Origin: Arcobacter sp.
GTDB lineage: Bacteria; Campylobacterota; Campylobacteria; Campylobacterales; Arcobacteraceae
Length of the DNA stretch: 57,252 bases
Assembly (NCBI GenBank): GCA_965662175.1
Contig: CBFIGT010000005.1
Span: 1 to 57,252 of the forward strand
Direction of reading: 5' to 3'
The position numbers and the translations under genes are program-made. Shown here one piece after another: positions 1,029 through 20,268 of the stretch. The notes under the pieces were generated by a model. It ran no database searches. It had not been told where the DNA came from and was given only the letters and a program-made list of their open reading frames with translations. The stretch's first letter is position 1; each line of letters opens with the position of its first letter.

Positions 1029-1082
1029 ATCTTACACAAGAATTATAGCCTGAATATAGCTCAAATATAGCATGAGTATAGC
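1029..1082 (-). promoter_or_regulatory. Four GCTATA direct repeats (11-bp period) plus -10 TAAGAT upstream of the aldehyde dehydrogenase
   Basis: TATAGC on + at 1044, 1055, 1066 and 1077; -10-like TAAGAT at 1034-1029, 9 nt from the last repeat. Confidence 0.8.
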
Positions 1083-1197
1083 GATAGGTAAAAAGCTCTA
1101 CAAGGCCCATTATATAGGATTAGTAGCATTTACGTAGCATTTAAAATTTATGTTTTTTTTGGTCAAAAAGATTAATATTTTATGCTACAATAATTTC

Positions 1198-3084
1198 ATG
1201 AAAACATTTAATTTTACATATCAAAACAATAGTTTCAAAAATATAATTGACTACTCATTGTTTAAAAATGAAGAGAATATATTAATACAAATATTTAGTG
1301 GACAAGATCATAGTACTTTAGAGTACATTATCTCTTTGCTTAGTAAAAATCTACCCCAAGCTATTATAATTGGTACTACAACTGATGGTGAAATTAAAGA
1401 TAAAAAAGTATCTACTTTAAAAACAGTGGTCTCAATATCTGTTTTTGAAAGCACTTTTATAAAAGCTTCAATAAAAAAAGGTCTTAACTCATTTCAAAAT
1501 GGTTATGATATTGCCCAAGAATTAATTACCTCAAATACCAAACTACTTATAACTTTTACAGATGGAACTTCAACAAATGGAGAAGAGTTCTTAAAAGGTA
1601 TAACAGCTTTTGATAACTCAATTATGGTATGTGGAGGAATGGCTGGAGATAATGGAGTTTTTAAACAAACATATATCTCATTGGGCTCTAAAATAATTGG
1701 CTGTGGAGCTGTTGCTGTTTCTCTTAACTCTGATATTTTACAAGTTAGTAATGATTATAAATATGATTGGTCACCTATTGGAATTGAGCATACTATTGAT
1801 AAGGTAATTGGAAATAGAATTTATGAAATATCAGGTATGAAAGCAATTGAATTTTATGAAAAATATTTAGGAGATAGTGATTCTCATACAGAGTTTCCCC
1901 TAATAGTTCAAAGAAATGGCATGTCAGTTGCCCGTGCTGTTTTAACACGTTATTCTGATGGAAGTTTAGGTTGTGGAGGAAATTTATACAAAGGGGATAA
2001 GGTTAAACTTGGATTTGCAAATGCTGAAATGATTATCAAAAATCCAGTGAAATATTTAAAAAATATTAACAACTATCCAGCTGAAACATTTTTTATTTAT
2101 TCATGTATGGCAAGACGAAGATATATGCAAAATCTTATCAAAGTAGAGATAGAGCCTTTTGCACAAATAGCACCAACAGCTGGTTTTTTTACCTATGCGG
2201 AGTTTTTTCACACAAATAAAAGAAATGAACTTATGAACCAAACTATAACCTTAGTTGGTCTAACAGAAAATCCCCACTCCTCTAAAAAAGTTATTGAAGA
2301 GAGTAGTAATATTGTAAATCACAATGAAAGTTCATATGCAAAAACTATTCAAGCCCTTACAAGTTTAATTCAACAAAGTGCAAAAGATCAAAATGAGCAA
2401 TCAAAAGTATTAGAAGAGCAGATTAAATATTCACAAAATTTACTAAAAAATCAAAAACTATTCCTAAGACACGCTGTTCATGAAACAAATACCCCTCTTT
2501 CAGTTATTATGAGCAATATTGATTTACATGAAATGGAACATGAAAAAAGCGAATATATCTCTAATATAGAGGTTGCTATGAAAAATATCTTCTCTATTTA
2601 TGATGATTTAAGCTATTTGGTTAAAAAAGATCAAGTTGAGTATAAAATTTACTCCATAGATTTAATTGATTTTGTAAGAAATAGAGTCTATTTTTTCAAA
2701 AATGTAGCTAATCAAGTCTCTTCAAAATTTAGTTTTCAAACAAATAATGATGAGATGAGTATAAAATTTAGTGAAACAAAACTTCAAAGAATAGTTGATA
2801 ATACATTAACAAATGCAATAAAATATACTTATAAGGGAAAACCCATCAATGTAAAACTTGAAAAAATTAATAAAACTCTTAAGTTTTCTGTTTCAAGTAA
2901 CTCAAAAAAAATCCAACACCCTGAAAAAATATTTGAAGAGTATTATAGGGAAGAGAAATCAAAAGATGGTTTTGGTCTTGGATTAAACCTAGTAAAAAGA
3001 ATTTGTGATGAAGAGGATGTTCTAATTGAACTTGTTTCAGACTCAAAAAACACATGTTTTACTTATACTTTTAAAGGATGCTGA
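1198..3084 (+). CDS. Soluble FIST-domain sensor histidine kinase
   Basis: FIST-N/FIST-C motifs (IIGTTTDGEI, GGMAGD, YSCMARR, GFFTYAE), H-box HETNTPL, N-box NAIKY, G-box GFGLGL; no transmembrane segment. Start moved from 1150 to ATG 1198, which lies 7 nt after TGcTACAAT. Confidence 0.88.
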   Translation: MKTFNFTYQNNSFKNIIDYSLFKNEENILIQIFSGQDHSTLEYIISLLSKNLPQAIIIGTTTDGEIKDKKVSTLKTVVSISVFESTFIKASIKKGLNSFQNGYDIAQELITSNTKLLITFTDGTSTNGEEFLKGITAFDNSIMVCGGMAGDNGVFKQTYISLGSKIIGCGAVAVSLNSDILQVSNDYKYDWSPIGIEHTIDKVIGNRIYEISGMKAIEFYEKYLGDSDSHTEFPLIVQRNGMSVARAVLTRYSDGSLGCGGNLYKGDKVKLGFANAEMIIKNPVKYLKNINNYPAETFFIYSCMARRRYMQNLIKVEIEPFAQIAPTAGFFTYAEFFHTNKRNELMNQTITLVGLTENPHSSKKVIEESSNIVNHNESSYAKTIQALTSLIQQSAKDQNEQSKVLEEQIKYSQNLLKNQKLFLRHAVHETNTPLSVIMSNIDLHEMEHEKSEYISNIEVAMKNIFSIYDDLSYLVKKDQVEYKIYSIDLIDFVRNRVYFFKNVANQVSSKFSFQTNNDEMSIKFSETKLQRIVDNTLTNAIKYTYKGKPINVKLEKINKTLKFSVSSNSKKIQHPEKIFEEYYREEKSKDGFGLGLNLVKRICDEEDVLIELVSDSKNTCFTYTFKGC

Positions 3085-3743
3085 TGAAAATATTATTATT
3101 AGAAGATGATATTATGTTAAACAAAGCTATTAAACAATACTTAGAATCAACAGGTCATGCTGTTATTTCAGCAATGGATGGAAATTGCTGTTTAGAGATT
3201 TTAAAAGAAGAGAGATTTGATTTACTTGTTTTTGATATAAATGTTCCTGATGTGGATGGTTTAACTATTTTGGAGGATTTGCATAGCCAAAAAAGAATGG
3301 TACCCACTATTTTTATCTCAGCACTTATTGATATTGAAGATATTACACGTGCATTTGATATAGGTTGTCATGATTATTTAAAAAAACCTTTCCATTTAAA
3401 AGAGTTAACACTTAGAATAAACAAGATTTTAAAAACAAGACAAGTACCACAAGAGCATAAAAGATTATCAAAATCATATAGTTATGATGCAAAAAATATG
3501 ATTCTACTTTTTAATAATGAACCTCAAATTTTACCAAAAAGACAAATACAAATTATTGATTTATTAGCTGCAAATAGAAGCTTAGTATGCAATTATGATA
3601 TGTTTAGAGATTATGTTTGGAATGATGATTATATAGATAATGCAACTATTCGAGCTGAAGTGAATAGAGTAAAAAAAGTCTTAAAAGAGGATTTCATCTC
3701 AAATATTAGAGGAATAGGTTATATGGTTGAAAGACCTAACTAA
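3084..3743 (+). CDS. OmpR-family two-component response regulator
   Basis: Receiver motifs LLEDD, FDINVP, KKPF; winged-helix C-terminus ending IRGIGY; start overlaps the kinase stop (TGATG). Confidence 0.92.
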   Translation: MKILLLEDDIMLNKAIKQYLESTGHAVISAMDGNCCLEILKEERFDLLVFDINVPDVDGLTILEDLHSQKRMVPTIFISALIDIEDITRAFDIGCHDYLKKPFHLKELTLRINKILKTRQVPQEHKRLSKSYSYDAKNMILLFNNEPQILPKRQIQIIDLLAANRSLVCNYDMFRDYVWNDDYIDNATIRAEVNRVKKVLKEDFISNIRGIGYMVERPN

Positions 3744-3868
3744 TCTATTTTATAATTTAAACAATAAAAAAGAGTAAAATAAGCACTAACAAACAATTTT
3801 ATAAGCAATAAAAAAGAAGAATAATTAGTAAATATATTCTAGAATTTTAAAAAAATATAGGAAAAAAA

Positions 3869-5320
3869 ATGCCAAAAAAAATTTCAAAAGTTCTAGTTGC
3901 AAATCGAGGTGAAATAGCTCTAAGAATAATTAGAGCTTGCAAAGAGTTAGACATTAAAAGTGTTGCTATTTTCTCTGAAGTTGATGTTGATGGGGTATGG
4001 GTTAGAAAAGCTGATGAGTGCTATCCACTTTTAGGTGACCCAATTCAAGCTTATTTAAATTTTGACAAAATTATTGCTTTAGCAAAAAAAGCCTCTTGTG
4101 ATGCAATTCATCCAGGTTATGGCTTTTTATCTGAAAATGCTGAGTTTGCCAAAGCTTGTGAAAAAGCAGGTATTATTTTTATAGGTCCAAAAGCTGAGCA
4201 TATTGCACTTTTTGGTGATAAAATGGCCTCAAAAGTAGCTATGAAAAAGATTGGTGTTCCAGTTTTAGAGGGGACGGATACTCCTATTTTAGATGTAAAA
4301 GAGGGTGAAAGAATCTCAAAAGAGATTGGTTTTCCAATTATTATCAAAGCTGCCTTTGGTGGAGGTGGTAGAGGTATGAGAATAGTAAAAGAGGAAAAAA
4401 ACTTTAAAGAGATGTTTGAAGCAGCAACTTCTGAAGCTAAAAAATTCTTTGGAAAAGGTGACGCTTTTATTGAAAAATATGTAGAAAACCCAAGACATAT
4501 TGAGATTCAAGTTATTGCTGATAAGTATGGAAATGTTTTACACTTAGGGGAGAGAGATTGCTCTATTCAAAGAAGACATCAAAAAGTAATTGAAATAGCT
4601 CCAAGTCCAAGACTTAATGAAAAAGTTAGACGGGAGTTATATAGGGTTTCTACAAAGGCTATGTTTAAATTAGGTTATGAAAGCGTTGGTACTATTGAGT
4701 TTTTAGTTGATAGTAGTGATAATTTTTATTTTATTGAGATGAATACAAGAGTTCAAGTTGAACATCCCGTAACAGAGATTACCACAGGTATTGATATTAT
4801 TCAAAGAATGATTGAGATAGCTGAGGGTGATAAACTACAATTTTTACAAGAAGAGATAAAATTTAGAGGTTATGCAATTGAGTTTAGAATAAATGCTGAA
4901 GACCCAAAAAAGAAATTTATGCCATCAAGTGGTACTGTAAATAAATATTTAACACCAGGAGGTCCTGGAGTTAGACTTGATACAGCTGTTTATACAGGAT
5001 ATAAAGTTCCTGCAAACTATGATTCTATGATTGGAAAACTTATTGTTTGGGCTCTTGATTGGGATGGCGCTGTTAGAAAAGCTAGACGAGCTTTAGATGA
5101 GTTTTATATAGAGGGACTTCCTACAAATATCCCTTTACATAGGGAAATTGTAAGGGATTTAGATTTTATTGAGGGTAAACTAGATACTAGTTATTTGGAT
5201 AAAAAACTTGAAAAATTTAATCTTGATGCCATTGATCATATTGAAGAAGAAGAGAAAAAGATGAAAAATATTGCTTTAGTGATAGAGCAAATTAAAAAAA
5301 ATAAATTAAACGTAAGATAA
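3869..5320 (+). CDS. Biotin carboxylase subunit (pyruvate carboxylase subunit A / AccC family)
   Basis: ANRGEIA, HPGYGFLSEN, GGGGRGMR, RDCSIQRRHQK, EMNTRVQVEH motifs; 483 aa with C-terminal extension as in PycA-type subunits. Confidence 0.9.
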   Translation: MPKKISKVLVANRGEIALRIIRACKELDIKSVAIFSEVDVDGVWVRKADECYPLLGDPIQAYLNFDKIIALAKKASCDAIHPGYGFLSENAEFAKACEKAGIIFIGPKAEHIALFGDKMASKVAMKKIGVPVLEGTDTPILDVKEGERISKEIGFPIIIKAAFGGGGRGMRIVKEEKNFKEMFEAATSEAKKFFGKGDAFIEKYVENPRHIEIQVIADKYGNVLHLGERDCSIQRRHQKVIEIAPSPRLNEKVRRELYRVSTKAMFKLGYESVGTIEFLVDSSDNFYFIEMNTRVQVEHPVTEITTGIDIIQRMIEIAEGDKLQFLQEEIKFRGYAIEFRINAEDPKKKFMPSSGTVNKYLTPGGPGVRLDTAVYTGYKVPANYDSMIGKLIVWALDWDGAVRKARRALDEFYIEGLPTNIPLHREIVRDLDFIEGKLDTSYLDKKLEKFNLDAIDHIEEEEKKMKNIALVIEQIKKNKLNVR

Positions 5321-5336
5321 TCTCTTACGTTTAATT
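5304..5336. terminator. Hairpin between convergent biotin carboxylase and pqqE
   Basis: Perfect 14-bp inverted repeat AATTAAACGTAAGA-taatc-TCTTACGTTTAATT. Confidence 0.7.
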
Positions 5337-5342
5337 AAATAT

Positions 5343-6446
5343 CTATTTACAATAGTTTAAAGAGTTTTGTCTATTTCTATAAATAGGCTCTTTTGAAAAA
5401 GAGCTCAAAGCTCTTTCTACTTTTTTTGTAACTACACTATGAAAAGATGATTTATCACAAACAGGGTCAGCCTCATTCATATCGCCTGTTAGGGCATAAG
5501 CTTGACATCTACATCCACCAAAATCAGCCTCTTTTTCTGGACAAGTTCGGCAAGGCTCTTTCATCCACTTATCACCCCTAAAAAAGTTAAAAGCTTCACT
5601 ATCATTCCAAATCTCACGTACTGAAAAATCTTTTACATTTGGAAAGTTTAGTGGTAGAGTATTTGCTGTATTGCAAGGAAGTGCTACACCATCAGGATTT
5701 ATAGTTAAAAATGTTGTCCCCCAGCCATTCATACAAGCTTTTGGTCTTGTTGCAAAATAATCAGGCACTACAAAAAACACCTTCATATCATCTCTTTTTT
5801 CCCTATAATAATCAACTTCCTCTTTTGCTTTTATTAACTGCTCTTGCGTAGGAAGTAAGGCATCAATATTTTCTAAAGCCCAACCATAATATTGTATATT
5901 TGCTATCTCTAAATAGTTGGCATCCAAAGAGTTTGCAAACTCAATTATATCCCCTACTTGATGGATATTTTGTCTTGTGATACAAGAGTTAATTATTAGT
6001 TGTAAGCCATTCTCTTTACAAGCTTTTGCAAAGGCGATTTTATCTCTTTGAGCATTTTTATTATTTGTAATTAGTGCTGTTGTAATTGCATCATGTGATT
6101 GAATTCCAAGTTGTACAGTTTTTAATCCTGCCTCTTTTAGTTTTGGAATTATTGATAAATCACAAGCAACACCTGAAGTTATAAGATTTGTATAAAACTT
6201 CAAATCAGCTGCTTTTTTTACTATTTCTACAATATCTTTATTTAAAAGTGGCTCCCCACCTGAAAAACCAAGTTGAACAGCTCCCATGGCACGAGCTTCT
6301 TCCATAACCCTAAACCAATCCTCTTTTGTCATACTATCTTTTGTATTTGCAAAATCAAGTTGATTATAACAATATGAACACTCTAAAGGACACTTATGAG
6401 TTAACTCTAAAAGCATCCATAAAGGTGGTTTGATTTTACTCTCCAT
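5343..6446 (-). CDS. pqqE: PQQ biosynthesis radical SAM/SPASM enzyme PqqE
   Basis: PPLWMLLELTHKCPLECSYC, QYYGWA, RPKACMNGWG, DFGGCRCQA; operon context. Confidence 0.96.
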   Translation of the reverse strand: MESKIKPPLWMLLELTHKCPLECSYCYNQLDFANTKDSMTKEDWFRVMEEARAMGAVQLGFSGGEPLLNKDIVEIVKKAADLKFYTNLITSGVACDLSIIPKLKEAGLKTVQLGIQSHDAITTALITNNKNAQRDKIAFAKACKENGLQLIINSCITRQNIHQVGDIIEFANSLDANYLEIANIQYYGWALENIDALLPTQEQLIKAKEEVDYYREKRDDMKVFFVVPDYFATRPKACMNGWGTTFLTINPDGVALPCNTANTLPLNFPNVKDFSVREIWNDSEAFNFFRGDKWMKEPCRTCPEKEADFGGCRCQAYALTGDMNEADPVCDKSSFHSVVTKKVERALSSFSKEPIYRNRQNSLNYCK

Positions 6447-6705
6447 AAACTACCCACTTTCTATTTAAAGCCTCAATTAAAAATGCCTCAACATCTTTTT
6501 TTAAATCAGCTACTTGAAACTTTTCTTCAAGTATTTTTGCAATATCAAGTGTAGAGTTTTTACCATCACATAAATTCATAATTTCACCAGCACTTTGATT
6601 TAACTGTACCATTCCCTCAGGATATAAAAGTACAAAACACTCCTGTGCTTCTTCGTATTGCAGTTGAAAATGATTATTCACTACAAGTGATTTTTCTAGT
6701 TGCAT
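6436..6705 (-). CDS. pqqD: PQQ biosynthesis peptide chaperone PqqD
   Basis: 89 aa, [24 protein letters not shown]; lies between pqqC and pqqE. Confidence 0.93.
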
Positions 6706-7447
6706 TACAATCCTTTATATTAAAGTATGGTGGTCTTTTAAGCTCATAAGCCAAATATAAAGCATCACACATAGTCCATAAAATATCAAGTTTAAACTGT
6801 AATATTTCACAAGCTTTATTTTGTAATTCGCATGTATTAAACTCTTCTAAAGTTAAGGCTAAACCATGTTGAACATCTCTTCTTGCTTCACTTAATCTTT
6901 TTTGAAAATATCTTAAGCCATTTGCTTCTATCCAAGGATAGTTTTTTGGCCAAGTATCAAGTCTTTGTTGATGAATTTGAGGTGCAAACATTTCAGTAAG
7001 TGATGACATAGCAGCCTCTTTCCAAGGTCTTTGTTTTGCAAAATTTATATAAGCATCTACTGCAAATTTAACAGCTGGTAAAACATATTTATGAGATATT
7101 AAATCCTCTTTTTTAAGTCCTACTGCAACACCAAGTTCTAACCAAGCTTCAATTCCACCACCTACACTATCATGGTCAATTATTCTATCTATCCATTTTC
7201 TTCTATCTTCAAGGGGTGGATTATTTGACATAATAGCTGCATCTTTTATGGGAATAGCTGTTTGATAATAAAATCTATTTGCAACCCAACCTTGAATCTC
7301 CTCTTTAGAACAAGACCCCTCATACATTCTTATATGAAAAGGATGATGAATATGATACATTTCACCCATAGCTCTTAGTTTGGCTTCAAACTCCTCTTTT
7401 GATAATAAGTTATCCATTCTTTTAGTCATACTATTTTCCTCTTTCAT
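6674..7447 (-). CDS. pqqC: PQQ synthase PqqC
   Basis: [44 protein letters not shown]; true start could be a downstream Met. Confidence 0.96.
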
Positions 7448-7448
7448 A

Positions 7449-8415: not shown

Positions 8416-8447
8416 AAAAAAATAGAGCTAGAAAAAATCTAGCTCTA
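8416..8447 (-). terminator. Stem-loop with U-tract between pqqA and pqqB
   Basis: TAGAGCTAGA-aaaaa-TCTAGCTCTA (8423-8447) followed on the minus strand by a T7 run; a hairpin after pqqA is common in pqq operons. Confidence 0.75.
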
Positions 8448-8460
8448 ATATTTTTAAATC

Positions 8461-8535
8461 TTATTCGTGACAAATATACATTGTAACTTCGAATCCAAAT
8501 CTATTATCTACGAACATTGGTGTTTCCCATTTCAT
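8461..8535 (-). CDS. pqqA: PQQ precursor peptide PqqA (24 aa)
   Basis: Not in ORF track. MKWETPMFVDNRFGFEVTMYICHE* with the E-x3-Y (EVTMY) core; strong AAGGAGG RBS; directly upstream of pqqB. Confidence 0.97.
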   Translation of the reverse strand: MKWETPMFVDNRFGFEVTMYICHE

Positions 8536-8571: not shown

Positions 8572-10350
8572 CTATTTATGTAGTTTAAATACGTGAACAG
8601 TTCCACCCTGATTGATGTTTTTGATTTTTTTAGCAACTTCACCACCCCATAAAGGAACAGCTCCACCCCAACCTGATACGATTGCAATATATTGCTCACC
8701 ATTTGTTTCCCATGTAACAGGAGAAGCAACAATTCCAGAACCTACATTGAATTTATATAAAATCTCACCTGACTCATCATCAAATGCTAAGAATTTACCC
8801 TCAGGAGTTCCTGCAAATACAAGTCCGCCAGCTGTAGTTAAAACTCCACCCCATAGTGGTGATGGGTTTTTATAATTCCATTTAATCTCACCTGTTAATG
8901 GATTAATAGCTTTAAGTGAACCAATATGATCTTCAAAAATTGGTTTAATAGTAAATCCAGCACCTAAGTAAGCAGCACCTTTTTTATAAGAAACCGGTTG
9001 ATTCCAAATATCCATTCCCCACTCATTTGATGGAACATAAAACATCTCTGTTTTTTTAGAATAAGCCATTGGCATCCAGTTTTTACCACCTAAGAATGAA
9101 GGTACTGAAAATACTGACTTACCTTTACTAGCTCCATTTGGATTTCCAGGTCTTCCATCTTCTGTAAAGATTGGTTTACCATCTTTATCAATTCCTTTTG
9201 CCCAAGTAATATTTGAAACAAATGGATTTGCTGTAATAAATTTACCATTAGTTCTATCTAATACATAAAAGAAACCATTTCTATCTGCAGTTGCAGCTAG
9301 TTTTTTACCATCTTTGTTAAATGAAATTAACTCATTAACACCATCAAAATCCCAACCATCATGTGGAGTTGTTTGGAAATGCCAAACAATTTTTCCAGTG
9401 TTTGGATTGATTGCTAATCTTGAAGATGAGTATAAGTTATCTCCAGGTCTTAAGTGTGAATTCCAAGGTGCTGGATTTCCTGTTCCAAAGAATAATAAAT
9501 CAGTCTCAGGATCATAAGTTCCACCAAGCCAAGTAGCAGCTCCACCTGATTTCCATAAATCACCAGGCCAAGTAAGTCCTGCTTCTCCACCTGTTATTCC
9601 ATTTTCTTTACCATTTAAGTAACCCATATGTCCTTCAACAGTTGGTCTAGTCCATACAACTTCACCAGTTTTTGCATCTCTTGCTTCAACCTTACCAACA
9701 ATACCAAACTCACCACCTGCAACACCTGTGATAACCATATCTTTTACAATAATTGGAGCTGCTGTAATTGAGTAACCATCTTTATAGTTGTTTACTTTTT
9801 TCTTCCATACAACTTTTCCAGTTTCTCTATCAAGAGCAACTAATTTTGCATCTAATGTTCCAAAAATAACTAAATTATCATATATTGCTGCACCTCTGTT
9901 GATAACATCACAACATGGTAAAATAGCATCAGGAAGTTTTGCATCATATTGCCATAACTCTTCACCACTTGCAATATCAATAGCAAACATTCTAGAGTAA
10001 GATCCAGTTACATACATAACTCCATCTTTGATTATTGGTTGAGACTCTTGCCCTCTTTGTTTCTCACCACCAAAAGAGAAGTTCCATACAGGAACTAAAT
10101 TTTTAACTGTAGTTTTATTTACTTGAGTTAATGGTGAAAATCTTTGGCCTTGAAGCCCCATTCCATTTGTAAGTACATCTCCCGTACTTTGTTCATCATT
10201 TAAGATTTCTAAATTAGTAACAGGGGCATATGATGGTTTTGTAACCTCACTTATGCTATTATTCATCGTGTTGTTTGAAGTAACACACCCGCTAATTAGT
10301 GCAGATAGTGTGATGGCTGCTGCGCTAGTTAGTAGTTTTTTGTTAATCAT
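8572..10350 (-). CDS. pedH: PQQ-dependent alcohol (ethanol) dehydrogenase, lanthanide-type PedH/ExaF-like, predicted lipoprotein
   Basis: Vicinal disulfide [36 protein letters not shown] (D334-x-D336), C-terminal [15 protein letters not shown]; lipobox ISG-C22. Confidence 0.88.
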
Positions 10351-10399: not shown

Positions 10400-10431
10400 A
10401 GTATACTTGAGTTGTATAGCTTGAGTTTAGC
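10400..10431 (-). promoter_or_regulatory. Regulon box plus -10 for the pedH-pqqABCDE operon
   Basis: Minus strand GCTAAA-ctcaa-GCTATA-caactcaag-TATACT. Confidence 0.8.
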
Positions 10432-11209
10432 TATGATTTACTTTTTTACTCTTGAAGCCTACAAAGGCCATAATTAAGGCAATAACTAAAGAAAAACCTA
10501 AAATCAAAAACACCTCAAAATCAAATTTTAGATATAAAGAGAAGCGAATTGACTCTACTATATAAGTAAATGGATTGTATGTTGAGATATTAAAAAGTAA
10601 TATTGATGAGTCTTTTATCTTCCAAAGTGGATAAAGAGCTGAACTTAAAAAAAACATAGGGAAAATAACAAAATTCATAACCGTAGCAAAATTTTCCAAC
10701 TGCTTTATAACAGATGAAATAAAAAGTGCAAAAGCATTTAGTATAATTGATGAAACAATAATCACAGGAATAGTTACTAATATAGCAAAATATGAAATCT
10801 CAACCCCATAAAGTTTAGCAATAATCAAAAAAGTAATAGCTTGAATAGTAGAAACAATTGCTGTTGCAAACATCTTACAAAATAGTAAATAGTTTCTATT
10901 TATATAAGAGGTTAATAAAATCTTCATACTTCCCATTTCTCTATCAAATATCATAGTTAGACTACTTTGCATACCATTAAAAAGCAAAACCATCCCCACA
11001 AGTCCAGGCACTATATATGTTTCATAGGTAATATATGTCTCATAGGGTGGAATAATTGCAAGTCCTAAAGCTGTTTTAAATCCAACAGAAAATATAAAAA
11101 GCCAAAGTAGCGGCCTTACAAGAGCTGAAAAAAATCTACTCTTTTGTTTTATAAATCTTATTAACTCTTTATAAACAATTCCCTGCATACAGTATAAATA
11201 TTTTTTCAT
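10427..11209 (-). CDS. ABC-2 permease, PQQ alcohol dehydrogenase system (PedC-like)
   Basis: SALVRPLLWLFIF, PPYETYITYETYIVPGL, DREMGSM, LSSALYPLWK; cluster context. Confidence 0.88.
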   Translation of the reverse strand: MKKYLYCMQGIVYKELIRFIKQKSRFFSALVRPLLWLFIFSVGFKTALGLAIIPPYETYITYETYIVPGLVGMVLLFNGMQSSLTMIFDREMGSMKILLTSYINRNYLLFCKMFATAIVSTIQAITFLIIAKLYGVEISYFAILVTIPVIIVSSIILNAFALFISSVIKQLENFATVMNFVIFPMFFLSSALYPLWKIKDSSILLFNISTYNPFTYIVESIRFSLYLKFDFEVFLILGFSLVIALIMAFVGFKSKKVNHS

Positions 11210-11212
11210 AAC

Positions 11213-11935
11213 TTAGCCTACTAGATAGTTAAAAGTATCTATCAAACTCTTTTTTTCATATTTTGATAAAAGTTCTTGAACTATCCCACTATCTACTATT
11301 TTCCCTGATTTTATAATAGAAATATCATCAGCTAACTCTACCTCATCAAATAAATGTGTTATCCAAAGAACAGAAATACCATCCTCTTTTACAAGATTTC
11401 TAACATAAGCTAAAATATCAAATCTAGCTTTTACATCAAGTCCAACGGTTGCTTCATCCAAAAGTAAAAGTTTTGGTCTATTTATAAGTGCTCTTAAAAT
11501 CTCTACTCTTCTTCTATGCCCACCATTTAATTTTCGCACTTGGGTATCTAAAATATTTTCTAATTCTAATTTTTTAATTTGAGAGTCAATACTCTCTAAA
11601 GTCTCTTTAAAACTTAAACCCTTTAATGAACCATAATAATACAAGTTTTGTTTAACAGTTAAATCCAAATCTAAAGTTGGCTCTTGAAATACAATCCCAA
11701 TATCTTTTAAGGCTTTTGAATAGTTTTTTATTGAGTAGCCATTTATATCTATCTCACCTTTTTGAAGATTTTGCAATCTTGTAATAAGTGAAAAAATCGT
11801 AGATTTACCTGCACCATTTAATCCTAAAAGCACAAAAAAACTAGCCTCTTTTATGGAAAAAGAGACATTATTTAAAGCTACTTTTTTACCATAAGCAAAC
11901 TCTACATCTTTGAAGTTTAATATATTTTCTTTCAT
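11213..11935 (-). CDS. ABC ATP-binding subunit, PQQ alcohol dehydrogenase system (PedB-like)
   Basis: Walker A GLNGAGKS, VFQEPTLDLDL, signature LNGGHRRRVEI, LLLDE; start moved to MKENIL (11935), just after the upstream stop. Confidence 0.88.
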   Translation of the reverse strand: MKENILNFKDVEFAYGKKVALNNVSFSIKEASFFVLLGLNGAGKSTIFSLITRLQNLQKGEIDINGYSIKNYSKALKDIGIVFQEPTLDLDLTVKQNLYYYGSLKGLSFKETLESIDSQIKKLELENILDTQVRKLNGGHRRRVEILRALINRPKLLLLDEATVGLDVKARFDILAYVRNLVKEDGISVLWITHLFDEVELADDISIIKSGKIVDSGIVQELLSKYEKKSLIDTFNYLVG

Positions 11936-11939
11936 ATTA

Positions 11940-12896
11940 TTACTTTGGAATAACAGCAAGTCCCCAAGGGTATCTTCCAACTTGAATACTCTTTTCAACT
12001 TTTAAACTCTCAACATCTATAACAGAAACGTCACTACTTACACCATTTGTTGTATAGAGTTTTTTCTCATTTTGTGCAAACTCCAACTGCCATACTCTTT
12101 TACCAACTAATAAATATTTAATCACTTTATATGTTTTTGCATCAATAACCGCCACATGATTTGCAGGCCCCAAAGCTACAAATGCATATTTACCATCTGA
12201 TGTGAGTTTTATACCAACAGGTTGAATCAAATCTTTGAAAATTCCTGGTATTTTAAATGTGATTTTAGCAATGCTCTCTTTTGATTTAGAGTCAACAACC
12301 ATAACAGTCCCACCAATCTCACTTGAAGCCCACACCTTATCACCTGTTTTACTAAACTCAATATGTCGTGGGCGTTGGTCAACTAAAGTATTGTGGATAA
12401 TCTTTTTTGTTTTGGTATCAATCCAGTGTAAAAAGTTTGAGGTTTCAGTTGTATTTATAGCAACTGTTCCATCAGGACTTACAGCCATTCCCTCAGGCTC
12501 AACACCAACTTCAATCTGTTTTATTACTGTTCTGTTTACTGTATCAACAACTGTTACAATTGCATCATCTTCATTTGAAATATAAAGCTCTTTTCCATCA
12601 GGAGTCAAAGCAAACTGTTCAGGGTCTTCACCTGAGGGTAAATTATAAATAATCTTTTTTGATTTTAAATCAAGTACTTGAACAGTATCATCATCACTTG
12701 CACAAATATAAAGCTGAGTGTTGTCTTTGTTTAATAATATCCCCCGTGGACGCTGCCCCACTTCAATAGTGTCAATTACTTTGTTTGTATATGAATCAAT
12801 TACTGATAATGTGTTATCTTTTTCATTTGATACATAAATTGTATCTGCAAAAAGAAAACTACTTAGTGCTAAACTTGTCATTAATATTTTTTTCAT
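11940..12896 (-). CDS. Periplasmic YVTN beta-propeller, PQQ-catabolism-associated (PedA2-like)
   Basis: Signal peptide; IYVSNEKDNT, VGQRPRGI, SGEDPEQF, VGVEPEGM, VGRYPWG repeats. Confidence 0.88.
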   Translation of the reverse strand: MKKILMTSLALSSFLFADTIYVSNEKDNTLSVIDSYTNKVIDTIEVGQRPRGILLNKDNTQLYICASDDDTVQVLDLKSKKIIYNLPSGEDPEQFALTPDGKELYISNEDDAIVTVVDTVNRTVIKQIEVGVEPEGMAVSPDGTVAINTTETSNFLHWIDTKTKKIIHNTLVDQRPRHIEFSKTGDKVWASSEIGGTVMVVDSKSKESIAKITFKIPGIFKDLIQPVGIKLTSDGKYAFVALGPANHVAVIDAKTYKVIKYLLVGKRVWQLEFAQNEKKLYTTNGVSSDVSVIDVESLKVEKSIQVGRYPWGLAVIPK

Positions 12897-12924: not shown

Positions 12925-12956
12925 ATTGTAGAGAATATTTATAGCTTGAGTTTAGC
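12925..12956 (-). promoter_or_regulatory. Regulon box plus -10 for the beta-propeller/ABC operon
   Basis: Minus strand GCTAAA-ctcaa-GCTATA-aatattctc-TACAAT. Confidence 0.8.
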
Positions 12957-12998
12957 AGGTGGTTTTTATTTTATTATATATAATTTCCACAAATAATA

Positions 12999-13027
12999 TT
13001 GACATTGTAAATACATTATGATAGACT
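12999..13027 (+). promoter_or_regulatory. Sigma70 promoter of brnT-brnA (probably leaderless) with palindromic operator candidate
   Basis: TTGACA (12999-13004), 17-bp spacer containing TGTA-aa-TACA, TGaTAGACT; ATG 7 nt after the -10 with no RBS. Confidence 0.65.
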
Positions 13028-13033
13028 ATTTTT

Positions 13034-13318
13034 ATGAAATATGAATGGGATGAAGAAAAAAATAGACTAAATCTACAAAAGCACGGCATATCATTTGAAG
13101 AAGCAAAAGAGGTTTTTAATGATGCTCTTCACATATCAAAACTAGATAAAAGATTTAGTTATTTTGAAGAAAGATGGATAAGCATTGGTTCAACTTCAAA
13201 ATATAAAGTTTTAGTTGTTGCCAATTTATTCTTTACAGATGAAGGTGAAGAAATTATTAGAATAATAAGTGCTAGAAGAGCTAACAAAAAAGAAAGGCAA
13301 AGTTATGAAAAGTGTTGA
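13034..13318 (+). CDS. brnT: BrnT-family ribonuclease toxin
   Basis: YEWDEEKNRLNLQKHGISFEEA...EERW..IG...IRIISARRA. Confidence 0.92.
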   Translation: MKYEWDEEKNRLNLQKHGISFEEAKEVFNDALHISKLDKRFSYFEERWISIGSTSKYKVLVVANLFFTDEGEEIIRIISARRANKKERQSYEKC

Positions 13319-13553
13319 AGAAAGAGCAAAATTTGATAATTTTGAATTGGAAGATAATTATGATTTTACAGATGGTATTAGAGGAAGATTTTATAAACCT
13401 AAAAAAGTACCTACCTCTATGAGATTGGATGATGATATTTTACTTTTTTTAAAAAAAGAAGCAAGTGAAAAAAAAATACCATATCAAACACTAATTAATA
13501 ATTTACTTAGAGAGCATATGCAAGTACATGGAATAAAAAAACAAATCAACTAA
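13305..13553 (+). CDS. brnA: BrnA-family antitoxin (ribbon-helix-helix)
   Basis: YDFTDGIRGRFY...SMRLDDDILLFLK...YQTLINNLLR; overlaps the toxin 3' end; start set to ATG 13305. Confidence 0.87.
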   Translation: MKSVEERAKFDNFELEDNYDFTDGIRGRFYKPKKVPTSMRLDDDILLFLKKEASEKKIPYQTLINNLLREHMQVHGIKKQIN

Positions 13554-13561
13554 TCATCCTC

Positions 13562-13593
13562 GCTAAACTTAAGCTATAAACCTTTTATATACT
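13562..13593 (+). promoter_or_regulatory. Regulon box plus -10 for the ABC substrate-binding gene
   Basis: GCTAAA-cttaa-GCTATA-aacctttta-TATACT. Confidence 0.8.
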
Positions 13594-13618
13594 TATTAAA
13601 AGTATATAAAGGCGAAAA

Positions 13619-14767: not shown

Positions 14768-15219
14768 TAAAACCTATATTTGCTTTTTTACTTTTTTGCT
14801 TAACTCTTAATGCTTATGAAATAGAAGATAAAACAGACTATTTTAAAGTAAAAATAAAAGAGAGAAGTTTTGAAAACTTATATTTAAATTTAAAAGATGA
14901 AATAGCATACAACTCTTATATACTTGTTTATGAATTAAATCTTGGAAAATCTACAGCAAGTGTAGCTAAGGCTTTAGATAAAAAAGCAGTAGTGAAAAAT
15001 GGAATAAACTTATTACTTTGTAAAAATAGCTTCACTTTAAAAATGCACGAAGAGAATATTGATAATATGACCTTTTGCCCTATGATTATCTCTATATATC
15101 AAGATGAAACCTCAAAATATATCTCTTTTAAAAAATATCACCCTTTAAAAAAGGGTGATAAAATAGCTAGCGAAATAAATAAAAGATTAAAAGAGCTAAT
15201 TTTAAATAGCTTAAAATAG
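14764..15219 (+). CDS. Exported DUF302-like protein
   Basis: Signal peptide; LLLCK...FCPMIISIY pattern and size resemble DUF302. Confidence 0.6.
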   Translation: MIKPIFAFLLFCLTLNAYEIEDKTDYFKVKIKERSFENLYLNLKDEIAYNSYILVYELNLGKSTASVAKALDKKAVVKNGINLLLCKNSFTLKMHEENIDNMTFCPMIISIYQDETSKYISFKKYHPLKKGDKIASEINKRLKELILNSLK

Positions 15220-15220
15220 A

Positions 15221-17281
15221 TTATTTTATTGGAAGTTCTATATAAAATATAGCTCCTGTTTCACTATTTTTTGCAGAGAGTTTTCCACCTAAACTTTCTG
15301 TTACTATTCTATAACTCATATTAAGTCCTAAACCTGTTCCCTCACTATCTTTTTTTGTAGTAAAATATGCTTCAAAGATTTTGGGTAAAATCTCTTCAGG
15401 AATTCCCCCTGCATTATCCTCAAAACTAATAATATAAGAATTTTCTTTTTTGATTAAATTGACACTTATAGTAGGATTTTCTATTTTATTTTCAATAAAA
15501 GCATCTTTTGCATTATTTATAATATTTATCATTACCTCTTCAAGTTCTCCTGAAACTAAATGTAAGCTAGCTGTTTTATCAGCTATATTATTTATAAGTT
15601 TAATATTATTATTGTATAAAGTTGTATTTATAAGATTTATTACTCTATTTAAACACTCTAAAATATTTACATTTTTTAACTCTTTTTTATCTTTTAAAAA
15701 GTTTCTAAAAGTCTCAATTGTATCTGACAAATAGTTAGCACTTTTTGTGATTTGTTCCATACTATCTTTAATTTCACTTTGCTGTAAAATATTCATCTCT
15801 TGTTTTAAAGAGATAGTAGTAGAAATAGTAGTAATTACAGATAATGGCTGTTTCCATTGATGAGCTATATTTCCAATCATCTCTCCCATAGCTGCCAATT
15901 TTGATTGATTTAACATTCTTTGTTTTTGTTCTTCAAACTCTTTTTTACTAGTAATATCATTTCTTTTAGAGATATATCCTGTTATTTTTTTATTTTTATT
16001 CCAAATAGGTTCAATAATGGCATCAACCCAATAATATGTACCATCTTTTTTTAGATTTTTAACTTCACCTTTCCAAGTTTTTCCACTTTGAATAGTTTCC
16101 CACATCTCTTTAAAAACACTACTATTTGTATCAGGGTGTCTTATTATACTATGTGGTTTTCCGATTAATTCCTCTTTTGTATAACCTGAAATATCACAAA
16201 ATGCTTTACTTACATAAGTTATATTTCCCTTTAAATCAGATTTTGAGAAAATTACATTATCATCATAAGTATTAAATAGTAAATTCAACTTTTTTTGTTG
16301 TTTAATTATTTTTGCTGTTTTTAGGGAAACCTCTTTATTTAAATATTTTGCATAGTTTCTATAAAAAAGATATAAAATTAATAAAATAAAAATAATTAGA
16401 AAAATAATCACTTTTATTAAATAATCAGCTTTGAAATCATACACAATAGATTTATCAAGCTTTTTTTCATCATAAAAAAATATAACAAATCCCATTTCTC
16501 CACCATGAATATCTTTTATTTGAGTTGTAAAAACTAAATAGTTCTCAAATAAAATTGGCTCATCCAAATACATTAATTTTTTTAATCCAAAAATTTCAGC
16601 TTTTTTCATAAGCTCTTTAGAAGCATTTAAATTAGCCACATAATTTTTACCAATAAAAAGTCCTGTAAATGGCTTAATAAATCTATTGGTATACTCTTCA
16701 TCTAAAACCATCAAAGGTTTTACTCCTACCTCTTCTAAAGCTGTTGCTATGGAGTTAAATTTAGAAATAACCTCAATTATTCCTATAAATTTATTTTCAT
16801 GAAAAAGTGGAATCATAGTCTTAAAAGTCATATCAAATCGACCGGTACTAATTCCTCTAATAGGTCTTGGATTTTTAATCATATCTACAATATCTATTCT
16901 TGCTTTAGCTGCATTATCCCCTACTTTATTAGTCCAACTTCTATAAAAGCTATACCCATCTTTATCAATAATTTGAATCCATAAATTCTTATTTTCATCA
17001 AAATTTTGAATATCTTTTATGATTTGTGTATAGTCGATTAATCTGTTATCATTTTTTAATAATGCTCTAGTTAATTTTTCATCTTTACTCAAAAGATATG
17101 TTAATGCAAAAGTTTTACCAAATTTTTTTTCAACTTCATTTTCAAAAAATGTAATAAGTTCATTTGATTTTGATTTATATAATTTGTTAGTTAAATTATC
17201 AATTTGCTTAGGATAATATAATCTATGAAAAATAAAAAGAGTAACAAAAACTACAATAATAAAATAAAATAATTTCTTCAT
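15221..17281 (-). CDS. Membrane sensor histidine kinase (periplasmic Cache-like domain, PAS)
   Basis: Two TM segments, PAS (SKSDLKGNITYVS...HSIIRHPD...WKGEVKN), H-box IAHQWKQPL, NNAKDA, GTGLGL. Confidence 0.9.
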   Translation of the reverse strand: MKKLFYFIIVVFVTLFIFHRLYYPKQIDNLTNKLYKSKSNELITFFENEVEKKFGKTFALTYLLSKDEKLTRALLKNDNRLIDYTQIIKDIQNFDENKNLWIQIIDKDGYSFYRSWTNKVGDNAAKARIDIVDMIKNPRPIRGISTGRFDMTFKTMIPLFHENKFIGIIEVISKFNSIATALEEVGVKPLMVLDEEYTNRFIKPFTGLFIGKNYVANLNASKELMKKAEIFGLKKLMYLDEPILFENYLVFTTQIKDIHGGEMGFVIFFYDEKKLDKSIVYDFKADYLIKVIIFLIIFILLILYLFYRNYAKYLNKEVSLKTAKIIKQQKKLNLLFNTYDDNVIFSKSDLKGNITYVSKAFCDISGYTKEELIGKPHSIIRHPDTNSSVFKEMWETIQSGKTWKGEVKNLKKDGTYYWVDAIIEPIWNKNKKITGYISKRNDITSKKEFEEQKQRMLNQSKLAAMGEMIGNIAHQWKQPLSVITTISTTISLKQEMNILQQSEIKDSMEQITKSANYLSDTIETFRNFLKDKKELKNVNILECLNRVINLINTTLYNNNIKLINNIADKTASLHLVSGELEEVMINIINNAKDAFIENKIENPTISVNLIKKENSYIISFEDNAGGIPEEILPKIFEAYFTTKKDSEGTGLGLNMSYRIVTESLGGKLSAKNSETGAIFYIELPIK

Positions 17282-17367
17282 ATTACAAAACCCTAAGTTT
17301 ATAATTTTTCTTTTTATTAATTGTACTATTTTATTACAAAATTGATTCTTTACCTTTATAGATTAAA

Positions 17368-17766
17368 TTAATATTTTCCAAACTCCTTATAACTATTATT
17401 TGAAAAAATAATATAAACAGTTTTTATCTCTTTATTATTCTCATAAGCAGGTAGTGATAAACCTATTGAGTCTTTTGGAATATTTTTAAAATAATCTTTT
17501 ATAGCTTTTAAAGGTACATTACCCTCAAATACATAATCATCTATTATGGATGTGTTACAAGATTGTAGCTCTTTTGGTACTCCTATTTCTCTTTTTAGAT
17601 TTTTTACACTCATTAAAGATACTATCTTTACATCACCAATCTCATTTTCCATATCATCAAGCCACTCTTTTGGACACTCACTTGTTACTGGTTTAAAGAT
17701 TTGCATTTTTTGATTTTGGGCAAAAAGAGCAAAAGTAAAAACTAAAATCAACATCAATTTTTTCAT
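17368..17766 (-). CDS. Exported DUF411/CopG-like protein with divergent metal ligands
   Basis: Signal peptide; KREIGVPKELQSCNTSIIDDYVFEGNVP...IGLSLP resembles the DUF411 pattern GVP..L.SCHT...Y..EGHVP...GLAVP. Confidence 0.65.
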   Translation of the reverse strand: MKKLMLILVFTFALFAQNQKMQIFKPVTSECPKEWLDDMENEIGDVKIVSLMSVKNLKREIGVPKELQSCNTSIIDDYVFEGNVPLKAIKDYFKNIPKDSIGLSLPAYENNKEIKTVYIIFSNNSYKEFGKY

Positions 17767-18461
17767 ACTATTCCTTCTAATATTTTGGGAAAAGTTTCCA
17801 AAATATGGTTTTTTATTTCATCTATTTTTTTAAGATTTGATTCTTGATTATTGTTATTTTCAAAATCTAATATCTTTTTTGTGGGATTAGCACTTAAAAA
17901 AATCATTCGATTTGATAAATGAACAGCTTCACTTAAATCATGAGTTACTAAAATAACTGTTGGTTTAAACTTTTTATAAAATGCTAAAAACTCTTTTTTT
18001 AAAGCCATTGAGGTAGGGAAATCTAAAGAAATAAAAGGCTCATCAAGTAGTATGATTTTGGGTCTATTTACAAAAGCCCGAAGTAAAGCCACTCTTCTTT
18101 TCATGCCACCTGAAAGTCTGTTTGGATAAAGATTTAAAATATTTTCTAAACCTATCATAGAGATTAAATCATCAATTTCACTCACATTTTTTGTTTTTGA
18201 AACCAATAAAAGATTCTCTTTTACTGTCAACCAAGGTAATAATCTATCATCTTGAAACATAAAAGAGATATTTGAAAAATCACCTTTTAAACTCCCTTTA
18301 TAATCCTCTTCAAGATTTGCAATAATATTTAATAATGTAGTTTTTCCACATCCTGAGGGTCCAATTATAGAAAGAAATTCTCCCTCATTTATAGCTATAT
18401 TTATATTTTTCAATACTACTTTTTTTGAAAAAAGTTTTTCATCAACACAGATATTTAACAT
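17763..18461 (-). CDS. NitT/TauT-family ABC ATP-binding protein
   Basis: GPSGCGKT, FQDDRLLPW, LSGGMKRR, LDEPF, VTHD. Confidence 0.9.
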   Translation of the reverse strand: MLNICVDEKLFSKKVVLKNINIAINEGEFLSIIGPSGCGKTTLLNIIANLEEDYKGSLKGDFSNISFMFQDDRLLPWLTVKENLLLVSKTKNVSEIDDLISMIGLENILNLYPNRLSGGMKRRVALLRAFVNRPKIILLDEPFISLDFPTSMALKKEFLAFYKKFKPTVILVTHDLSEAVHLSNRMIFLSANPTKKILDFENNNNQESNLKKIDEIKNHILETFPKILEGIV

Positions 18462-18462
18462 C

Positions 18463-19197
18463 TTATTTCCAAGCTTTTAATCTATTATCAATAGGTTTTA
18501 AAATCTTATGTTCAATTAGTAAAATAACAAATATAAAAGCAAAAGAGTAAGCTAAAATAGAACTAATATCAAAAAACTGATAATACATAGATATTTGAAA
18601 ACCAATACCATCACTTCGCCCTAATAACTCAACAACTAAAACAATTTTCCAAATTAAAGATAATGATAATCTTGTTGTTGCCATCAAATATGGATAGAGT
18701 TGGGGAAGATAGATATTAAATATTATCTCTTTTTTTGATAACTTATAAACCTTTGCAAAATCCATATATTTTTTTTCAAAAGCTCGTGTTCCTTCTCTTA
18801 TATTTGTAACTATTATTGGAACTTTATTTATAACTACGGCTAAAATCGCAGCAAAATCACTAAGTCCAAACCAAATATAGCAAACTATTATTGTAACAAG
18901 GGCTGGAATATTTAAAAATAAAATTAACAAAAAATCAAGCATCTCATCTATTTTTTGATAAAAGCCCATAGCTATTCCTATAATTACACCTATTATCATA
19001 GTTATAAAAAAAGCTACAAAGACTCTATATAAAGTTATAAATAGATGGGAAAACAACTCTTTATTTGCTATTTGTTGACTAAGATTTTTTAATACATCAA
19101 TTACACTTGGAAATAGTTCTGAGTTAACAGCTATGGAAGAGGCTTGCCAAACTATAACAACTAGCAAAATTGATAAAATTCCCCTTTGATTTTTCAT
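18463..19197 (-). CDS. NitT/TauT-family ABC permease
   Basis: Multiple TM segments; WKIVLVVELLGRSDGIG. Confidence 0.88.
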   Translation of the reverse strand: MKNQRGILSILLVVIVWQASSIAVNSELFPSVIDVLKNLSQQIANKELFSHLFITLYRVFVAFFITMIIGVIIGIAMGFYQKIDEMLDFLLILFLNIPALVTIIVCYIWFGLSDFAAILAVVINKVPIIVTNIREGTRAFEKKYMDFAKVYKLSKKEIIFNIYLPQLYPYLMATTRLSLSLIWKIVLVVELLGRSDGIGFQISMYYQFFDISSILAYSFAFIFVILLIEHKILKPIDNRLKAWK

Positions 19198-20153
19198 TTA
19201 TTTTCCAAATAAAAAATATCTCTACTAAAAGAGATATTTGAGCTAATATAAGAGGCCCCTGCTTCATTTGATAAAATTTTATAAATCTTTTCTAATTCAT
19301 CTATATCTTTTTCATCAAATTTATTTATAGTTCCTTTTTTATACTGCTGTTTTAGTGAATTAAAAATCTCTTCATTTTTTACTTTCATTAAAGCTCTGAT
19401 TTTATTCCACTCCTTATCACTACTATTCAAAAACTCCTTACTTTGAGTATTTGCTTTTAAAAAGCTATTTAATAACTCACTCTTTTTAGTTGCAAACTCC
19501 TTAGAAAATACCCAACCTACAAAACTAATATCCTCTTTTACTCCAAGCTCTTTTAAAATATCTTCAATATTAATAAGTGCTTTAAAATCTTTTTTTGGAA
19601 GTTTTGCATTAAAATGCCAGAAATTTATACTTGCATTTAGTGAATTATCAAGCATCTTTTTATATAAGATTGGAGGTGAAGCAAAAACCTTTTTCACATC
19701 ATTTTGAAGCTCTTTTCCATAGGTTTTTTTATAATAAGCCCTAAACAAAAGCCAAGTTTTATCATAAACTCCACCTGCAATTCCTAGCTCTTTATCTTTT
19801 AACTCTTCTAAACTATTGATATTGGAATTTTTATTTATCATAAGTGTTCCAAGTGCTTTTGAATAGGGATAAAACATAAACTCTTTTTTATTTGCTTTTT
19901 GTTTATTAACCCAAATCCAATCATTTACTATAATATCAACTTCATTTGCTTGTAGTGAAATTAATTGGGCATTTTTTGAAGCTAATTTTACAAGCTCTAA
20001 ATCAAAGCCGTTTTTTTTATCTAAGCCATTTTGTTTTAAAATTTCTAATCCCCAATTAACAGTTCCATAGGCTAAAACACCAACTCTTAATTTTTCATTG
20101 GCATTTAAATTTATCAAAATAAATAAAAAACAAAACACTAGTTTATAAAACAT
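19194..20153 (-). CDS. NitT/TauT-family ABC substrate-binding protein
   Basis: Signal peptide; GVLAYGTVNW, DIIVNDWIWV, PYSKALG, IAGGVYDKTW, NFWHF. Confidence 0.85.
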   Translation of the reverse strand: MFYKLVFCFLFILINLNANEKLRVGVLAYGTVNWGLEILKQNGLDKKNGFDLELVKLASKNAQLISLQANEVDIIVNDWIWVNKQKANKKEFMFYPYSKALGTLMINKNSNINSLEELKDKELGIAGGVYDKTWLLFRAYYKKTYGKELQNDVKKVFASPPILYKKMLDNSLNASINFWHFNAKLPKKDFKALINIEDILKELGVKEDISFVGWVFSKEFATKKSELLNSFLKANTQSKEFLNSSDKEWNKIRALMKVKNEEIFNSLKQQYKKGTINKFDEKDIDELEKIYKILSNEAGASYISSNISFSRDIFYLENK

Positions 20154-20183
20154 AAATCACTCCAAATATCAAATAATGCACTT

Positions 20184-20215
20184 ATTGTATATGATATTTA
20201 TAGCTTGAGTTTAGC
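20184..20215 (-). promoter_or_regulatory. Regulon box plus -10 for the NitT/TauT ABC-DUF411 operon
   Basis: Minus strand GCTAAA-ctcaa-GCTATA-aatatcata-TACAAT. Confidence 0.8.
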
Positions 20216-20236
20216 GTTAAAAATATTTATTTTGGC

Positions 20237-20268
20237 GCTATAATCAGGCTATAAAATATCTGTATAGT
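20237..20268 (+). promoter_or_regulatory. Regulon box plus -10 for the cytochrome c550 operon
   Basis: GCTATA-atcag-GCTATA-aaatatctg-TATAGT. Confidence 0.78.

Follow-up and report, generated by a model that had tools for sequence, protein, structure and literature searches.

A tandem GCTAWA box as the probable operator of a FIST kinase–OmpR-type regulator pair in an alcohol-oxidation island of Arcobacter

Several promoters within a single catabolic gene cluster of Arcobacter sp. carry the same pair of directly repeated hexamers, which raises the question of which protein recognizes this box and what the genes behind it have in common. The cluster lies in a window of 57,252 bp, by which we mean the whole stretch of contig CBFIGT010000005.1 (assembly GCA_965662175.1) that was analysed. 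Scans of the window proteins with Pfam and NCBIfam indicate that the genes form an island for alcohol oxidation with pyrroloquinoline quinone (PQQ), at one end of which a sensor kinase with FIST domains and a response regulator of the OmpR/PhoB type are encoded divergently from an aldehyde dehydrogenase. We address here whether the box is the operator of that regulator.

The box, GCTAWANNNNNGCTATA (GCTAWA-N5-GCTATA), has eight exact matches in the window, all within positions 1044–20253, against a mean of 0.03 in 100 dinucleotide-preserving shuffles, none of which reaches eight. Three of the matches overlap at 1044–1082(−) and amount to four GCTATA hexamers in 11-nt steps, and the boxes at 10415, 12940 and 20199 share the 17-mer GCTAAACTCAAGCTATA letter for letter. 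A preliminary description of this DNA had reported the box coordinates, their orientation toward the downstream genes and the three identical 17-mers, all of which are borne out by pattern search and by reading of the sequence. The fuller consensus would be GCTAWA-yTyAr-GCTATA. The half-sites are direct rather than inverted repeats of 6 bp with a period of 11 bp, in line with the 6–7-bp half-sites and 10–11-bp period of an OmpR/PhoB-type operator; when only spacings that are not multiples of three are considered, GCTAWA pairs peak at a spacing of 11 (10 pairs), versus 2 pairs at spacing 10 and 1 at spacing 13. Relaxing the box to two mismatches gives 24 matches in the window versus 14.5 expected (1 of 100 shuffles reaches 24), and among these only a site at 34142 looks structured.

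The distance between the box and a −10-like hexamer is fixed. At the six window promoters exactly 9 nt separate the proximal box from a hexamer that reads TAAGAT, TATACT, TACAAT, TATACT, TACAAT and TATAGT (in window order); the genes start 25–75 nt beyond this TAnnnT hexamer, and every box is oriented toward its gene. The 9-nt step had been noted previously, together with a geometry of 11-nt-period direct repeats that lie over the −35 region and point with transcription, and both descriptions hold for all six promoters. TAnnnT occurs at 3.6% of genome positions and at +9 of single GCTATA hexamers in 38 of 1276 cases (3.0%), whereas it is present at +9 of the paired boxes in seven of seven promoters in the genome, and chance is therefore not a reasonable explanation. 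Promoter-specific placement and fixed spacing likewise rule out a mobile repeat or a chance origin for the box itself. A generic σ70 scan is uninformative in DNA of 28% GC, returning 103 promoter-like sites versus 108 expected from shuffles.

Extending the search to the 2.6-Mb assembly (27.8% GC) yields nine exact matches to the box and none to the reversed pattern, and the nine matches represent seven promoters. The ninth match lies on contig C22, with TATGAT at the usual 9-nt step, ahead of a 401-aa Pyr_redox_2 gene; we interpret its product as a type-II NADH dehydrogenase. When a weight matrix is built from 58 distinct proximal sites, all in other genomes, and applied to this genome, it also returns nine hits: the seven promoters (22.8–45.0 bits), one upstream member of an array and one weak site on contig C8. 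The genome-wide search proposed in the preliminary description thus finds the box confined to seven promoters rather than common at random positions. The weak C8 site (GCTATA-N5-GCTATG, 21897–21937(+), 17.5 bits) lies upstream of a 261-aa gene whose product presumably resembles the cytochrome b subunit of fumarate reductase.

The box is also conserved in relatives. At least one match is present in 118 of 151 sampled genomes of the same family (the reversed pattern occurs 0–2 times per strand), and in many of these genomes the matches cluster within ~20 kb. We fetched loci from 16 other genomes, representing at least five genera, and placed the window proteins on them by tblastn. The box precedes the aldehyde dehydrogenase orthologue in 16 of 16, always divergent from the kinase–regulator pair and usually as two to four hexamers, and in all 16 the regulator gene adjoins the box. 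In 10 island genomes it also lies ahead of the orthologues of the alcohol dehydrogenase, the beta-propeller/ABC operon, the binding protein, the NMT1-type ABC operon and cytochrome c550. The exception is G150, with only 51% identity for the dehydrogenase and a locus in which no beta-propeller/ABC, binding-protein or NMT1 genes were detected. The check in related genomes that had been suggested earlier therefore places the box before the same orthologues in 16 other genomes, and the regulon extends beyond the island and is more ancient and more widespread than this one genome.

The promoter geometry is preserved along with the box. Across 17 genomes, TAnnnT stands at +9 in 71 of 94 distinct exact-match contexts, and the remaining 23, on reading of the contexts, are all upstream pairs inside arrays of at least three hexamers. 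When 10 intergenic regions between cytochrome c and the NMT1 binding protein are aligned with no anchor on the box (mean column identity 73%), only the two boxes and the two −10 hexamers are invariant. Two genomes with a kinase orthologue and zero exact matches, G048 and G067, have variants that differ by one letter (GCTATT, GCTTTA) in the region between aldehyde dehydrogenase and kinase, and the G067 variant retains the 9-nt step to TAGAAT. Longer arrays exist as well: at L018:4724–4800, L021 near 10259 and L022 near 1799, at least six GCTAT hexamers follow one another in 11-nt steps and end 9 nt before TATAAT; the gene after the L018 array (genome G144) encodes a 399-aa protein with no Pfam match.

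How closely is the box tied to the FIST kinase and its neighbouring regulator? Kinase hits in the 151 genomes separate into orthologues (E-values of 1e-139 or better) and paralogues (1e-99 or worse). The 79 genomes with an orthologue have a mean of 5.5 boxes, and at least five boxes occur in 39 of them; the 72 genomes lacking one have a mean of 0.97 boxes, and none reaches five. Where the kinase orthologue is accompanied by the PQQ dehydrogenase (43 genomes) the mean rises to 8.2, where the pair occurs without the dehydrogenase (36 genomes) it is 2.2, and where neither is present (71 genomes) it is 0.93. One genome, G069, has the dehydrogenase with no kinase orthologue detected. Its locus (G069:C15:393265–415838) contains a regulator orthologue with six stops (five TGA and one TAA), a dehydrogenase gene in two pieces and three remaining boxes, and the island appears to be decaying, regulator and target together.

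Two further observations carry more weight than these counts. In six genomes, boxes near the pair are found only in a minimal module of regulator/kinase, box, aldehyde dehydrogenase and DUF779, with no PQQ genes in the vicinity; the genes on either side vary, and the six share no other regulator. The second observation is a change of target. At Sulfurospirillum-labelled and related loci, the pair (50–58% and 61–67% identity) is divergent from a molybdenum aldehyde oxidoreductase (Fer2, Fer2_2, Ald_Xan_dh_C and MoCoBD domains by Pfam in the two loci scanned), and the box stands before that gene; at L043, L049, L050 and L052 it lies 9 nt before TATAAT or TATACT. At these loci the box stays with the regulator while the target becomes a non-homologous enzyme for the same substrate class. 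They belong to a set of 29 loci taken from named records, of which 16 have an exact box directed away from the kinase at no more than ~200 nt from its start, and 2 have an exact box in the opposite orientation. The 11 loci without an exact box comprise 7 with one-letter variants, 2 with nothing visible and 2 without upstream DNA.

On this evidence we favor, with some confidence, the interpretation that the box is a PhoB-like activator site of the adjacent regulator and serves an acetaldehyde-centered regulon. Activation by OmpR/PhoB-family proteins uses direct repeats that replace the −35 element, lie at a fixed distance from the −10 element and are oriented with transcription. The OmpR-type assignment of the preliminary description agrees with the Response_reg and Trans_reg_C domains found here, with the gene now placed at 3078–3743. 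An alignment of 50 regulator orthologues with identities as low as 61% shows an invariant stretch, T-I-R-x-E-x-N-R-x-K (residues 190–199); we take it to be the recognition helix by analogy with PhoB structures, and its invariance is consistent with a conserved operator without being proof of one. The kinase is predicted to be soluble (maximum Kyte–Doolittle value 1.37 over 19 residues, with no window above 1.6). In the mechanism that we infer, this kinase would partner the regulator, and the phosphorylated regulator would bind its operator, the box, as a head-to-tail dimer on the two hexamers. With transcription starting ~7 nt after TAnnnT, the hexamers would span about −38 to −22, and the bound regulator would recruit RNA polymerase as PhoB does at the pho box. 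Arrays of four to six hexamers would accept further dimers.

Several considerations weigh against this interpretation and in part leave some room for a different binding factor, which could be an unlinked OmpR-type paralogue or a partner of a dCache_3-PAS kinase encoded at 15221–17281. A single match is weak evidence, given that genomes without the pair also contain about one exact match apiece. The co-occurrence of box and pair is confounded by linkage, since the pair is part of the island, and by the kinship of the genomes; among the sampled genomes, every intact PQQ island comes with the kinase–regulator pair. OmpR-type paralogues are numerous (nine matches in G069 alone), and one of them could therefore be the box binder. 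Some genomes (loci L082–L086) even have a second FIST kinase–regulator pair, at 50–54% and 64–66% identity, and the orphan dCache_3-PAS kinase is encoded within a box-driven operon. We nevertheless consider a different factor unlikely. The six minimal loci share only the pair and the aldehyde dehydrogenase with DUF779 around the box, and a change of target enzyme leaves the box with the pair. At its five loci the paralogous pair is accompanied by neither a nearby box nor an upstream direct repeat of 10–12 nt, and it lies co-directionally behind another gene. The orphan kinase was not found (at least 35% identity over half the length) in the loci of 16 other genomes, which makes it a weaker candidate for the core sensor.

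The direction of control and the nature of the element can be questioned in the same way, particularly as the −10 and −35 labels were assigned from sequence alone. The site covers a region occupied by RNA polymerase, the −10 hexamers are fairly good (TATACT, TACAAT, TATAGT) and in this bacterial group many promoters have no −35 element, so that its absence is no proof of activator dependence and the adjacent regulator might instead be a repressor that blocks polymerase. Such a role is improbable: strict orientation and an exact 9-nt step at 71 of 71 proximal sites are what contact with polymerase would require, whereas occlusion needs no such precision, and the geometry is that of PhoB activation. 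In addition, none of the seven promoters has TG at the usual extended −10 position, on reading of their contexts. The hexamer pair could also be recognized by an alternative sigma factor, such as an extracytoplasmic function (ECF) sigma, as its upstream promoter element, and an Arcobacter butzleri ECF sigma mutant does show altered expression of the aldehyde dehydrogenase operon AB0376–0377 (PMC3445524). That effect may be indirect, and the paper does not contain the words promoter or motif. The downstream element here is of the σ70-type TAnnnT form, and tandem arrays of three to six hexamers phased at 11 nt are unlike a −35 element; we regard an alternative sigma as very improbable. Activation through the box by the adjacent regulator thus remains our preferred explanation.

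With the regulator as activator, the regulon in this genome would include the PQQ alcohol dehydrogenase, cytochrome c550, pqqA, accessory transporters, the type-II NADH dehydrogenase and the NAD aldehyde dehydrogenase, the last as its universal core target; ethanolamine ammonia-lyase, a FIST chemoreceptor or the molybdenum aldehyde oxidoreductase would be added in relatives. The preliminary description had proposed that the regulator activates all catabolic operons of the island. The comparative link between box and regulator supports the core of that proposal, but its scope was too wide, in that pattern searches of the window found no box before pqqBCDE, the biotin carboxylase gene or the kinase–regulator operon. 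Outside the island, the box and its 9-nt step precede the NADH dehydrogenase gene in this genome and in G002, a 659-aa FIST-MCP chemoreceptor identified by Pfam in G054 (an open reading frame (ORF) in G098 was matched by length alone), and eutBC, encoding ethanolamine ammonia-lyase, in G129 (ORFs in G150 were matched by EutB length alone). Alcohol dehydrogenase and ethanolamine ammonia-lyase make acetaldehyde, both of the aldehyde-oxidizing enzymes remove it, and NADH dehydrogenase can reoxidize the resulting NADH. The extra targets are functionally coherent and support the regulon interpretation.

These acetaldehyde-linked targets and a soluble sensor make a cytoplasmic, aldehyde-linked signal the simplest inference, and it is conceivable, perhaps approaching an even chance, that the FIST kinase–regulator system responds to one. 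A more specific version can be offered tentatively: the FIST kinase may be a cytoplasmic sensor of acetaldehyde, or of a linked aldehyde or redox cue, and the kinase–regulator–box unit may have been rewired across the Campylobacterales onto non-homologous enzymes that make or remove acetaldehyde, and onto a FIST chemoreceptor. In that event it would be the first kinase of the FIST type for which operator and regulon are defined.

The features of the island are collected in Table 1.

Table 1. Boxes, promoter elements and genes of the island; positions are those of the window
Feature	Position	Strand	Remarks
Box matches	1044–1060, 1055–1071, 1066–1082, 10415–10431, 12940–12956, 13562–13578, 20199–20215, 20237–20253	−, −, −, −, −, +, −, +	Pattern search
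Array of four GCTATA hexamers, 11-nt steps	1044–1082	−	Aldehyde dehydrogenase promoter, divergent from kinase–regulator operon
−10-like TAAGAT	1029–1034	−	9 nt past proximal hexamer of aldehyde dehydrogenase array
ExaC-like NAD aldehyde dehydrogenase, cut by contig end	3–953	−	Pfam Aldedh; NCBIfam ExaC 515.8 bits on partial protein
Sensor kinase	1150–3084	+	FIST_N, FIST_C, HisKA, HATPase (Pfam)
OmpR/PhoB-type response regulator	3078–3743	+	Response_reg and Trans_reg_C, 87.9 and 35.7 bits; proposed box binder
Biotin carboxylase; pqqEDCB	In island		Pfam/NCBIfam
pqqA	8461–8535	−	24 aa, E-x-x-x-Y motif; 36 nt past dehydrogenase stop
PQQ-dependent alcohol dehydrogenase	8572–10350	−	Pfam/NCBIfam; closest solved relatives 6zcw, 6zcv
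Box of PQQ alcohol dehydrogenase promoter	10415–10431	−	Overlaps 3′ end of ABC-2 permease gene; −10 TATACT 10400–10405
Box of operon for beta-propeller protein (TIGR03866), ABC ATPase and ABC-2 permease (10427–12896)	12940–12956	−	−10 TACAAT 12925–12930
Box of PQQ-system binding protein (TIGR03863, 13619–14767) and next 151-aa gene	13562–13578	+	−10 TATACT 13588–13593
Box of operon 20153–15221	20199–20215	−	−10 TACAAT 20184–20189
Genes of operon 20153–15221			NMT1/SsuA-like binding protein, permease, ATPase, DUF411, dCache_3-PAS kinase (Pfam)
Box of run from cytochrome c550 PedF (20302–20712) to SBP_bac_3, SoxYZ-like and metallo-beta-lactamase-fold genes	20237–20253	+	−10 TATAGT 20263–20268

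Compared with solved chains, the alcohol dehydrogenase matches 6zcw and 6zcv at an E-value of 7e-270 and 1flg at 2.5e-195; we take the former two to be the lanthanide enzyme PedH and the latter to be the calcium enzyme ExaA. The protein carries WDFDG, which we assume to be a lanthanide signature. A 10-bp hairpin with a T-run at 8423–8447(−) follows pqqA and precedes pqqB. Given that pqqA lies only 36 nt behind the dehydrogenase and is followed by this strong hairpin, it is probably co-transcribed with the dehydrogenase and served by its promoter. The order dehydrogenase, pqqA, hairpin and pqqB would fit a high output of pqqA with attenuated read-through. A terminator-like site at 15136–15160 closes the operon 20153–15221. 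The last gene of this operon encodes the orphan dCache_3-PAS-HisKA-HATPase kinase on the minus strand, a membrane protein with two hydrophobic segments, which may give this genome alone a periplasmic input.

Between the beta-propeller operon and the binding-protein gene, a BrnT/BrnA toxin–antitoxin pair (13034–13553) keeps the two divergent promoters apart, with 605 nt between their boxes. In eight other genomes for which loci were fetched, the same two boxes stand back to back with ~9–12 nt between them, and BrnT/BrnA looks like an insertion precisely between two promoters. The structured site at 34142–34158(−) is a variant box, GCTATG-N5-GCTATA, with TAGGAT at the 9-nt step, and is located ~245 nt upstream of a CBS-domain gene. 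Variant and hexamer are conserved in six genomes of the same genus, at a syntenic place ~13 kb from the island, and the site is an uncertain candidate member of the regulon. Rfam gave no match at 33700–34300, which includes the leader of the CBS-domain gene (33885–34141). A leader of another kind occurs at the Sulfurospirillum-type loci L043, L045, L048–L052 and L056, where ~280 nt of conserved sequence lie between the box promoter and the molybdenum aldehyde oxidoreductase gene; at gathering thresholds, Rfam found nothing in these leaders in the three loci searched.

For the Arcobacteraceae and related Campylobacterales, in which few regulons are known, the box gives a two-component system a regulon, an operator and a promoter architecture that can be tested. 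The target set would point to a candidate signal for the FIST sensor domain, for which few ligands are known. The box could also be used to predict the use of ethanol, ethanolamine and aldehydes from genomes, and might serve as an inducible promoter part.

How does this system compare with known ones? The operator type is a textbook one, and the half-site, regulon and sensor pairing appear undescribed. In agreement with the earlier suggestion of an undescribed motif, a full-text literature search, with most subscription journals outside its coverage, returned no description of the box or of a FIST kinase/OmpR-type regulator system. The closest likeness is to PhoB and the pho box of Escherichia coli, where two direct repeats with an 11-bp period lie ~10 bp upstream of the −10 element, replace the −35 element and point with transcription, where some promoters have extra repeats, and where the regulator also combines a receiver with a winged helix. 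Here, in contrast, the half-site is GCTAWA, the sensor is a soluble FIST kinase rather than PhoR, and the regulon concerns alcohol and aldehyde oxidation rather than phosphate. The regulator scores 87.4 bits against the PhoB equivalog TIGR02154, whose cut-off is 296.2, and it falls under every NCBIfam equivalog cut-off among the best 25 of 98 matches; it is thus not assigned to the Pho regulon. The tor boxes of TorR and other multi-repeat operators of the OmpR family resemble the aldehyde dehydrogenase promoter in having at least four tandem direct repeats, one per approximate helical turn, and differ from it in sequence, sensor and regulon.

The structural genes resemble most the ped/exa system of Pseudomonas. 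The clusters have in common a homologous PedH-like PQQ dehydrogenase, cytochrome c550 PedF, an ExaC-like aldehyde dehydrogenase, beta-propeller/ABC and binding proteins and pqq genes. Matches to NCBIfam models indicate this homology, with 202.5 bits for PedF (cut-off 122), 498.8 for TIGR03866 (287.3), 785.1 for TIGR03075 (480) and, just below its cut-off of 413.6, 411.2 for TIGR03863. The control of ped/exa is described as involving the LuxR-type regulators AgmR/ErbR and PedR2, the latter with PedS2, and the NosP-like PP_2663 beside the hybrid kinase PedS1 (2026 review, PMC12997753); in that review the words OmpR and FIST are absent, and neither of two passages on a binding site concerns DNA. 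A LuxR-type domain was found in none of the 24 ORFs of at least 80 aa scanned in 1–22340. The FIST kinase scores 41.5 bits against the NosP model (cut-off 450) despite its FIST_N and FIST_C domains, and is therefore not a NosP equivalog. Both clusters pair a FIST-type sensor with a kinase, but in Arcobacter the sensor is fused to the kinase, and the regulator is of the OmpR rather than the LuxR type. PQQ-dependent alcohol oxidation of the lanthanide type would thus be under OmpR-type control here, in place of the LuxR-type cascade of Pseudomonas.

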